Part shown: piece by piece, positions 37,684 to 38,770 of the stretch
Layout: every line of letters begins with the position of its first letter
Position numbering within the stretch: the first letter of the stretch is position 1
Source of the DNA: an uncultured Gammaproteobacteria bacterium
Lineage (GTDB): Bacteria; Patescibacteriota; Patescibacteriia; Magasanikbacterales; GWA2-37-8
Assembly (NCBI GenBank): GCA_964596525.1
Contig: CAZQUL010000001.1
Span: forward strand, 204,830-268,829
DNA: 64,000 bases
Direction: 5' to 3'
The notes under the pieces: model-generated
Databases searched by the model: none
The model's input: only the letters and a program-made list of their open reading frames with translations
What the model was told of the DNA's origin: nothing
Position numbers and translations under genes: made by a program

Positions 37684-38479
37684 CCCTTTCTCCTGGTTTG
37701 CAATTAATGAAACGAGGGGCTTTTACGACATGGCGGTTAAAGTATTTAGGTGTATAGATGGATTCAATAAACATGGTTTTAGAGTTTGAGAGCATGGTAT
37801 GGACTCCTTTTTTCGTAAGTCTAACGATGTAATCCCTTAGACGTACCTGATCTTTCTCGGAGAAACCGTCTTTAGTGTAGGCGGTAAACGATAAATCTTC
37901 GACCGTCGGATGGTAGGGAGGATCAAAATACACAAAATCACCCTTCTGCGGGGTGATAGTTTCCGATTCAAAATCAGCCAAAACAATCTTGGCTTTTTGT
38001 AATGCCTGATGACAGGCCCAGATATTTTCTTCCTGGACGATGCTGGGGTTCTTGTAACTTCCAAGCGGGCTATTGAATTTACCAGCCTTGTTTACGCGAT
38101 AGAGACCGTTATAGCAGGTCTTGTTGAGATAAATGAAGCGGGCAGCCTTTTCGATAGGATCGTAAAATTCATCTTTTCTGACATTGTAGAAATATTCCTT
38201 GGTATGCCGCTTTTCGTGCTCTTTGAGGAGGTTTATTAATCTTTCCGGGTCTTTCTTTACTGCCTGGCAGGTCAAAACCAGTTCCAGGTTGTTATCCGAA
38301 AGAACCGCTTCGGTAATACGGTCGGCTAAAGAGAAAAACAATGCTCCTCCGCCGATAAACGGTTCGTAGTAACGGTTAAACGACTCCGGTAGGTGGGAGT
38401 GCAACTCGGCAAGCAAAGAACGCTTGCCACCAACCCATTTGAGGAAGGGTTGGGCAATACTAAAATGAGGGTCTGACAT
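37649..38479 (-). CDS. Dam-family N6-adenine DNA methyltransferase (alpha-class)
   Basis: FLKWVGGKRSLL AdoMet motif I near the N-terminus, catalytic DPPY. Confidence 0.9.
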   Translation of the reverse strand: MSDPHFSIAQPFLKWVGGKRSLLAELHSHLPESFNRYYEPFIGGGALFFSLADRITEAVLSDNNLELVLTCQAVKKDPERLINLLKEHEKRHTKEYFYNVRKDEFYDPIEKAARFIYLNKTCYNGLYRVNKAGKFNSPLGSYKNPSIVQEENIWACHQALQKAKIVLADFESETITPQKGDFVYFDPPYHPTVEDLSFTAYTKDGFSEKDQVRLRDYIVRLTKKGVHTMLSNSKTMFIESIYTPKYFNRHVVKAPRFINCKPGERDEVEELLITNY

Positions 38480-38482
38480 ATT

Positions 38483-38622
38483 CCTTGGTCGGGTTTAATA
38501 ATATGTCGAGCGAAAAGGCAAAAAGCCTCCCGCTAGTGATGGTCCGGAGACCACCCATACCCTTTTCAGGGTATGACCGACCAAGGTATCTAAGCGAGAG
38601 GCTTACTACCTTGGTCGGTTTT
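38483..38622 (+). promoter_or_regulatory. structured leader with mutually exclusive antiterminator (1:2) and terminator (2:3) pairings; candidate attenuator/riboswitch or antisense RNA at the MTase start
   Basis: CCTTGGTCGG at 38483-38492 and 38609-38618 both complement CCGACCAAGG at 38577-38586; the 2:3 helix has an inner TAAGC/GCTTA stem and is followed by TTTT; putative promoter TTGAGG-16-TAAAAT at 38439-38466. Confidence 0.45.
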
Positions 38623-38770
38623 GGTGCCATGCCTGCTGATATTTTCGCAGGTTTAGGCTTAAATTGTGATAAATCTATTTAAATAGAGACATTAAAGATA
38701 CTTTTAAGTATAGTTTATACTAACAAAAGACTCAGTTTATTAAAAGGATTTCGACAATTAAAAGGTGGGT

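Follow-up and report, generated by a model that had tools for sequence, protein, structure and literature searches.

A LOOT-family RNA upstream of a restriction-modification operon in a Patescibacteria genome carries a variable stem whose arm recurs at the adjacent start codon

A short repeated sequence in a Patescibacteria genome raises a question: when one segment of DNA has two alternative partners close by, on which strand is the set read, and which gene does it serve? The sequence lies in a stretch of 64,000 nucleotides (nt), hereafter the window (GenBank assembly GCA_964596525.1, contig CAZQUL010000001.1, positions 204,830 to 268,829 of the forward strand), which was deposited as an uncultured Gammaproteobacteria bacterium and which GTDB places in the Magasanikbacterales of the Patescibacteriota; all positions given below are those of the window. 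On its plus strand, the decamer CCTTGGTCGG occurs at 38483-38492 and again at 38609-38618, and the exact complement, CCGACCAAGG, occurs at 38577-38586. The complement and the second copy form the core of a perfect 13-bp stem (38576-38588 with 38607-38619), which includes an inner TAAGC/GCTTA pair set and is followed on the plus strand by TTTT (38619-38622). We put at about 6e-4 (4 x 150 / 4^10) the probability that some 10-mer of a 13-nt arm would be met again on the same strand, no more than 150 nt away. A first-pass annotation had read this arrangement as a plus-strand attenuator, in which a transcript starting inside a methyltransferase gene would fold either into a terminator (segments 2:3, followed by UUUU) or into an antiterminator (segments 1:2), with a Cys-rich gene under its control. 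That interpretation is partly supported by the present analysis: the competing helices are there, and what was misassigned is their strand, their identity, and the gene that they would regulate.

What, then, is the element? The region was scanned with covariance models, as the first-pass annotation had proposed, and positions 38538-38659 matched the LOOT RNA (Rfam RF03000). The match is found on the minus strand only, covers model positions 1-121 of 121, and scores 85.1 bits (E = 1e-14), well above the gathering threshold of 46.4. Rfam gave two matches in the whole window, this one and a tRNA-Ala (43181-43254); in a cmscan search of 38300-38900 run in E-value mode, all matches to families other than LOOT were far below threshold. 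The minimum-free-energy (MFE) fold of the minus strand is the Rfam structure (z = -9.6). In the helices of the family, G-U outnumbers A-C by 346 to 52, so the RNA folds on the LOOT strand; with the strand specificity of the Rfam match, this count speaks against a plus-strand leader. We conclude that 38538-38659 is a member of the LOOT RNA family, read on the minus strand. A riboswitch was also considered and rejected: the best match to such a model was SAM-III (13.9 bits vs. a threshold of 45), and the genes downstream of LOOT RNAs are heterogeneous.

The gene served by the third segment must accordingly be sought on the minus strand. Directly downstream of the LOOT RNA, and on the same strand, is a type II restriction-modification (R-M) operon consisting of a methyltransferase and then an endonuclease. 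The former is a D12-class (Dam-like) N6-adenine DNA methyltransferase (37649..38479, minus strand; Pfam PF02086, E = 6e-60; PADLOC MTase_II, E = 6e-92) whose start was confirmed by an independent gene call. The latter, a PD-(D/E)XK restriction endonuclease (37165..37644, minus strand; Pfam PF20472, E = 3e-36), starts 4 nt past the methyltransferase stop. It is here, at the methyltransferase start codon, that the third segment is located, rather than at the Cys-rich gene (315 aa) that had been taken as the regulated one: on the minus strand, this copy reads CCGACCAAGGAAUAUG, i.e., the ribosome-binding site (RBS) and start of the methyltransferase (in extended form, ...AAACCCGACCAAGGAAUAUG), and it ends 3 nt before the AUG. 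Judged from its sequence, the LOOT RNA with its flanks appears to constitute a module of about 190 nt comprising a -10 box, a 5' box, P1, an AAAA linker, P2, P3, P4, a 3' tail, and a U-run. Its parts are as follows, in the order in which the minus strand would be transcribed.

38672..38677, minus strand: candidate -10 box, TAGATT; weak (4/6 to TATAAT) and missed by a consensus scan.
38660..38667, minus strand: 5' box, ACAATTTA (consensus ACAAYTKAAT), directly upstream of the Rfam model and present in 81-86 of about 95 loci.
38626..38658, minus strand: P1, a GCC/GGC closing helix with an inner hairpin, containing the invariant GCCUAAAC and GCAUGG; 97-100% paired in 95 sequences.
38619..38622, minus strand: AAAA linker, uppercase in the Rfam consensus; its columns are invariant or nearly so (alignment A3).
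38607..38619, minus strand: P2 5' arm, ACCGACCAAGGUA (formerly segment 3), which resembles the downstream RBS region and would mask the 3' arm.
38593..38604, minus strand: B, the apical part of P2, AAGCCUCUCGCU, predicted to pair with the 3' tail.
38576..38588, minus strand: P2 3' arm, UACCUUGGUCGGU (formerly segment 2), a candidate anti-RBS, complementary to 38607-38619 and to 38483-38492.
38556..38575, minus strand: P3, a hairpin with a GAAA-type loop; 96-97% paired, with 8/8 pairs covarying.
38538..38555, minus strand: P4, a hairpin; 94% paired, with 7/7 pairs covarying.
38520..38534, minus strand: 3' tail, made up of B' (AGCGGGAGGCUU, 38523-38534) and an overlapping U-run (38520-38524); outside the Rfam model, and a candidate terminator or pseudoknot strand.
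38509..38519, minus strand: B'', which nearly repeats B and, in read-through RNA, would join B' in a local hairpin with a UUUUU loop, as in the MFE fold of the 241-nt transcript.
38483..38492, minus strand: third segment, hereafter seg3 (formerly segment 1), CCGACCAAGG, an exact copy of the core of the P2 5' arm, with the Shine-Dalgarno sequence AAGGA inside.

The 5' box probably represents the first transcribed bases; for this conserved box, no pairing partner was found above permuted controls. The consensus scan of 38300-38900 detected no minus-strand promoter. In the MFE fold, an 8-bp helix between GACAUAUU and AAUAUGUC (38475-38507, minus strand) pairs the methyltransferase AUG and leaves seg3 and its Shine-Dalgarno sequence in the loop.

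Is the threefold arrangement peculiar to this window, or does it accompany the RNA elsewhere? LOOT loci were collected with a covariance model built from the LOOT RNA of the window and with a conserved sequence pattern that served to fetch candidates. Viral contigs contributed five true copies. A genome collection contributed at least 120 loci, about 90 of them true LOOT, nearly all from metagenome-assembled genomes (MAGs) of Patescibacteria and a few from MAGs labelled Gammaproteobacteria. The resulting set of at least 96 loci is a sample obtained with one sequence pattern, and it includes near-duplicate loci. All 17 key loci that were re-tested, each of them positive for the triple, pass the Rfam threshold for LOOT (64-94 bits). 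Over 95 distinct LOOT sequences, 93.5% of the pair cells are occupied by standard pairs, with compensatory change in 37 of the 41 pairs. Transcription signals recur as well: 58/86 loci (8/86 in a control window) have, upstream of the 5' box, a TATAAT-like -10 hexamer that ends 4-9 nt before it, with TAGATT as its positional counterpart here, and a U-run follows the B' tail in 76/94. The -10 box and the U-run are consistent with a discrete RNA. One viral contig (L122, 1887-1969, minus strand) carries the 5' box and P1 only, followed by unrelated sequence; this is either a truncated copy or a variant.

The arrangement does recur. In 21/92 loci (~22%), a site located 44-90 nt beyond the end of the Rfam match is complementary to the P2 3' arm over 9 nt or more, as compared with 1% when the flanks of other loci were substituted (permuted) and 0/94 upstream. 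Elsewhere in the 8-kb loci, matches to the P2 arms occur at background level only. The downstream site is an exact, sharp-edged duplicate of the base of the 5' arm, embedded in unrelated flanks, and it takes 13 different sequences. In about 18 of 20 positive loci, it either overlaps a start codon on the LOOT strand or stops 0-9 nt short of one. These loci show that genes unrelated to one another, placed downstream of LOOT, have the triple at their start codons in 13 sequence versions. The first-pass annotation had named the presence of the repeats at related loci as a check, and 20 other LOOT loci have the same three-part layout in different sequences; its idea that three segments with mutually exclusive pairings form a real design maintained by evolution is thereby borne out, with a second arm partner nearby in the 21 loci above. 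The copy travels with the RNA rather than with the gene. Loci that share ACCGCTACAGT or CCTATCAAG have unrelated downstream proteins, and the same is true of loci that share ACCGCUACAGU or CCUAUCAAG, from which it follows that the copy belongs to the LOOT module and not to the gene. Two loci, L144 and L125, share the P2 arm ACGUAUCAAGC; only one of them carries the downstream copy, placed inside the first codons of its gene, so the copy can be gained or lost while P2 stays the same.

The P2 outer stem itself evolves in an unusual manner. It is 91% paired, and 13/13 of its pairs exhibit compensatory change; its arms are hypervariable, with only 58% identity in pairwise comparisons of loci whose identity elsewhere is 80-90%, and pairing is kept. 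About 1% of its pairs are G-U. In alignment A2, all four Watson-Crick pairs are frequent at each position of the stem despite this scarcity of G-U. The scarcity could reflect folding on both strands, a constraint at the DNA level, or wholesale replacement of the arms.

Further copies of the P2 sequences in the window were noted. The decamer occurs exactly at two more places, 46723-46732 (plus strand) and 61294-61303 (minus strand), both within open reading frames (ORFs), where it supplies in-frame Pro-Thr-Lys codons. About 0.1 exact copies are expected in the window by chance, which makes two extras mildly odd; they are probably the product of chance or codon usage. An 11-mer, CGACCAAGGTA, at 41045-41055 (plus strand) matches a P2 arm and is inside a tyrosine integrase gene.

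The loci also revealed a helix that is absent from the Rfam consensus. The entire tip of P2 can pair with the 12-13 nt that come straight after P4; the partners in the window are AAGCCUCUCGCU (B) and AGCGGGAGGCUU (B'). On a MAFFT alignment (A3) that was not fitted to any structure, pairing in the B:B' helix reaches 91.9%, with both sides changed in 9 of the 12 pairs, whereas the inner P2 hairpin drawn by Rfam is 42% paired on the same alignment. The helix has a median length of 12 bp with the locus's own tail and 8 bp with the tails of other loci. These data show, at the level of sequence, that a covarying helix joins the apical loop of P2 to a 3' tail that ends in a U-run. In structural terms, B:B' would be a pseudoknot while P2 is closed and would become a nested, terminator-like helix if P2 opened. 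A local hairpin of the B'' type involving the tail is present in about a third of the loci, including the window (33% score at least 9, vs. 8% for permuted and 3% for shuffled sequences). We rejected this hairpin as an antiterminator: the B'' copy is placed after the U-run and is thus transcribed too late to act as one.

What company do LOOT RNAs keep? The genes downstream of them are varied: besides the R-M operon of the window, they include a type IIG R-M enzyme (L135), zinc-ribbon membrane proteins, a nuclease-like protein, secreted proteins, and proteases. This cargo, then, often consists of potentially toxic or surface proteins. We rejected the notion that LOOT is a leader belonging to the methyltransferase family, as 0/82 loci with relatives of the methyltransferase (37-62% identity) carry a LOOT RNA. 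Regulation of the R-M operon by a controller (C) protein was likewise rejected: no small helix-turn-helix (HTH) C gene lies between or beside the methyltransferase and endonuclease genes, and the nearest HTH protein (39855-40259) is 1.4 kb off, on the other strand, with a weak HTH_17 match only. No relatives of the 315-aa Cys-rich gene were found near LOOT in the other 95 loci.

The window is chromosomal, with genes for RuvB, RelA/SpoT, and similar proteins; the RuvB has relatives of ~70% identity in Candidatus Magasanikbacteria and other Patescibacteria. A low-GC stretch (34-43% vs. ~52%) at about 30000-40000 harbours LOOT and the R-M genes. The same stretch contains an AriA/PtuA/AbiLi-like AAA ATPase (446 aa) with a 240-aa partner that has a weak HEC-01B match (35150-37163, plus strand), along with two unannotated genes (375 and 315 aa), and has the appearance of a defence island. 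Just outside it are a tyrosine integrase (40324-41463) and, in tandem with it, a large serine recombinase (41696-43243), as well as the tRNA-Ala gene (43181-43254, minus strand), into which the recombinase ORF extends. A recombinase ORF in L134 likewise ends in residues that look, by eye, tRNA-derived; together, these observations suggest that the elements integrate at tRNA genes. As in the window, tRNA genes are found a few kb or less from LOOT in L154 (5707-6092) and L144 (1420-1490). More than 50 LOOT loci have a homologue of the window's recombinase. In about 20 loci, a large serine recombinase is divergent and only 100-190 nt upstream of LOOT; in 33, one is found within 4 kb. LOOT is usually beside such a divergent recombinase in L079, L080, L132, L135, L148, L172, and some 25 more, and terminase-like and ParB-methylase genes are often downstream of it on the opposite strand. 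From the recombinase, terminase-like, and ParB-methylase neighbours, we infer that LOOT resides inside phages or integrative elements of Patescibacteria.

How might such an RNA act on the gene beside it? The P2 3' arm would be an anti-RBS, and the P2 5' arm its mask, i.e., an anti-anti-RBS. With P2 closed, the methyltransferase start region would be free and translated. Because P2 is formed first during transcription, this would be the default state. If the 3' arm were released, it could pair with CCGACCAAGG and block initiation at the methyltransferase, and the endonuclease would be affected too through operon polarity. Two routes of release can be envisaged: read-through transcripts may refold into a long-range helix that encloses P3, P4, and the tail hairpin, or the terminated RNA may be processed and then act in trans. 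The conserved core (P1, P3, P4, and the pseudoknot) would be the part that senses or binds the factor that sets the balance, and the hypervariable P2 would be the address that ties each LOOT copy to its own cargo gene. The predicted energetics leave room for such a switch. For the 3' arm of the window, the predicted duplex energy is -20.1 kcal/mol with the 5' arm and -20.0 kcal/mol with seg3. In most of 20 loci, constrained folding puts the two competing pairings 0-5 kcal/mol apart, and in 7 of the 20, the seg3 pairing, which closes a multibranch structure with P3, P4, and the tail hairpin, is the predicted MFE structure. We hold it about equally probable that LOOT is, or is not, a portable RNA module that governs translation of its neighbouring cargo gene by means of a masked anti-RBS. 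More tentatively, and with doubt predominating, LOOT could be a programmable, self-masked antisense module of the phages and integrative elements of Patescibacteria, with a pseudoknotted core, a terminator of its own, and P2 as its address.

Several observations weigh against control by a masked anti-RBS. In the window, closed P2 is predicted to be favoured by ~10 kcal/mol; as P2 also forms first in transcription, an unmasking step would be required. About 77% of LOOT loci have no adjacent seg3, and so the core function of the family must lie elsewhere. Most seg3 sequences do not resemble a Shine-Dalgarno sequence. A G-U bias that might assign a strand was sought in the pairing of the arm with seg3 and none was found, the core being entirely Watson-Crick; the triple is also strand-symmetric and of itself points to no strand. 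A one-strand RNA model leaves unexplained why P2 has ~1% G-U when the other helices (P1, P3, P4) have 10-25%. The promoter, the terminator, and the read-through are all inferred. Finally, the loci came from one sequence pattern among the matches listed, near-duplicates among them.

Other explanations must be set against these findings. The paucity of G-U is what one would expect of a DNA inverted repeat, and it leads to a reading in which the P2 inverted repeat and the seg3 direct repeat are recombination or protein-binding sites, or scars of cassette exchange, of a serine-recombinase element, and not RNA partners at all. The hypervariability of the P2 arms relative to the remaining RNA agrees with that reading, as do the sharp edges of the repeat between unrelated flanks and the switch of cargo genes immediately past seg3. 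So, too, do the recombinases: those divergent from LOOT at 100-190 nt (~20 loci) or within 4 kb (33 loci), and that of the window, with its homologues at more than 50 loci. On the other hand, LOOT is intact in an island that has already been integrated next to tRNA-Ala, and P2 is therefore not the crossover site used here; for the same reason, P2 is unlikely to be the attachment site of the neighbouring recombinase in the window, though we retain this role among the rival readings. Moreover, the arms sit in an RNA whose other helices, including B:B', covary with G-U on one strand, and the direct repeat is located at start codons. We know of no recombinase site with such an arrangement, which we count as a further point against this explanation. 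On balance, we deem it unlikely, though it has a real claim to attention. Another reading dispenses with the downstream gene: LOOT would be only a free-standing, trans-acting small RNA (sRNA), or a structural RNA, of phages and islands of these bacteria (the candidate phyla radiation, CPR), and the downstream copy would be a hitch-hiking duplication. Rfam types LOOT as 'Gene; sRNA', and the RNA has a -10 box and U-run of its own. The 77% of loci without seg3 are readily accommodated, and homologous cargo genes follow LOOT in L172, which has seg3, and in L079, which lacks it. Yet 13 independent variants keep the copy equal to the arm even though the arm evolves fast, and the copy holds a constant position, 34-78 nt after LOOT at the start codon, with no enrichment elsewhere. 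We therefore have little belief in a role confined to trans action or structure.

The plus-strand attenuator fares worst. It draws on real features: a hairpin followed by U4 is present on the plus strand, the strictly Watson-Crick P2 would fold equally on both strands, and the conserved A-linker places a U-run after P2 on the opposite strand in the whole family. Still, the TTTT that was read as the U-run of a terminator is the complement of the conserved AAAA linker of the minus-strand LOOT, and the consensus scan found no terminator-like site on the plus strand, or on either strand, in 38300-38900. The proposed promoter (TTGAGG-16-TAAAAT, 38439-38466) consists of hexamers that do exist, matching the consensus at 9/12 positions, but this is weak evidence; the same scan of 38300-38900 returned 4 promoter-like sites on the plus strand vs. 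1.2 expected. An antisense promoter of this kind would, moreover, need to sit in the unrelated cargo genes at each locus. The putative 'sensor' with its two small hairpins is the reverse complement of LOOT P3, P4, and the tail hairpin, and the G-U pairs of those hairpins become A-C mismatches on the plus strand, where the Rfam match is absent. The Cys-rich gene, which this model would regulate, was not found near other LOOT copies. As for a leader peptide, the ATG frame that begins MSSEKAKSLPLV... exists within an ORF at 38485-38682 (plus strand), but it has no coding signal. The 59-codon frame is unsupported and was rejected as a leader peptide: the frame (59-65 codons) lies on the strand opposite a structured RNA, and neither strand of LOOT has more stop-free frames than the other, about half of the loci having one across the element on either strand. 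Taken together, these points render a plus-strand attenuator highly improbable. In a weaker form of the model, P2 and UUUU would serve as an unregulated terminator for plus-strand transcription. Plus-strand genes flank both sides in the window (35150-37163, and 38771 onward), and a recombinase lies beyond P2 on that strand in many loci, so an insulating terminator would make sense. The strand symmetry of the triple and the scarcity of G-U in P2 are compatible with this weaker form.

We return to control by a masked anti-RBS and ask how it compares with known systems. The LOOT motif comes from the comparative survey of Weinberg et al. 2017 (PMC5737381). A literature search found no account of its function, the supplement of the 2017 survey being outside that search. 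The RNA of the window shares with the Rfam family the P1-P4 helices and the GCCUAAAC, GCAUGG, AAAA, and GAAA elements. Unlike the Rfam consensus, which ends at P4 and has the tip of P2 drawn as a hairpin, its P2 tip pairs with a 3' tail; in addition, a 5' box and a -10 box precede the modelled region, and ~22% of loci copy the P2 5' arm downstream. The element is a known orphan RNA with a first functional clue.

The c4 RNA of phages P1 and P7 offers an instructive comparison. It pairs with sites at the ribosome-binding region of icd, and copies of the target sequence are also found upstream of c4. Its pairing bases are exposed in loops, and P1 and P7 differ by matched changes in c4 RNA and target. 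LOOT resembles c4 in that specificity resides in covariation of the RNA and its target, as with P2 and seg3. It differs in that its candidate anti-RBS is buried in a 13-bp stem and in that its cargo consists of varied accessory genes and not an antirepressor. The window has no match to the C4 family, and the resemblance is functional only. As described in PMC8198154, c4 lies in the same operon as the genes it represses, upstream of them (immI operon, c4-icd-ant), and full repression of ant depends on it (PMC8198154, citing Citron and Schuster 1990). In its possible mode of action, LOOT would be closest to c4 by analogy, without being a member of that family.

Attenuators and riboswitch platforms also have features in common with LOOT, namely, exclusive helices in which segments are used repeatedly in duplicate copies, a U-run behind a helix, and a conserved core beside a variable output. 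However, the genes downstream of LOOT are unrelated and hence form no ligand-linked regulon. Further, the alternative hairpin (B'') comes after the U-run, and the competing pair targets an RBS instead of a terminator. With regard to R-M systems, a 2013 review names EcoRI (Rna0) and Eco29kI as the only ones with antisense RNAs (PMC3874152). Control of an R-M operon at the RNA level would be common to these systems and to LOOT, for which it is a candidate role only. The RNAs of EcoRI and Eco29kI are true antisense transcripts from reverse promoters inside genes; the candidate regulator here is structured, encoded upstream on the same strand, and complementary over 10 nt only. The order of genes differs too: the methyltransferase is first in the window, whereas the endonuclease is first in EcoRI and Eco29kI (PMC3874152).

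LOOT is an orphan family without an assigned function, and very few regulators have been characterised in Patescibacteria. The match between the variable stem and the start region, the tail helix with its U-run, and the association with serine recombinases and phage genes provide the basis for a testable hypothesis, that of translational control of accessory and defence genes on mobile elements. If it is true, each element would have private (orthogonal) control of potentially toxic cargo, such as an R-M operon. This would constitute a third kind of RNA-based R-M control, after the antisense RNAs of EcoRI and Eco29kI, and a portable one, because relatives of the methyltransferase occur elsewhere without LOOT. 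The module would then be a natural counterpart of phage immunity RNAs or of engineered toehold switches, and an orphan RNA family of these bacteria would have gained a function.

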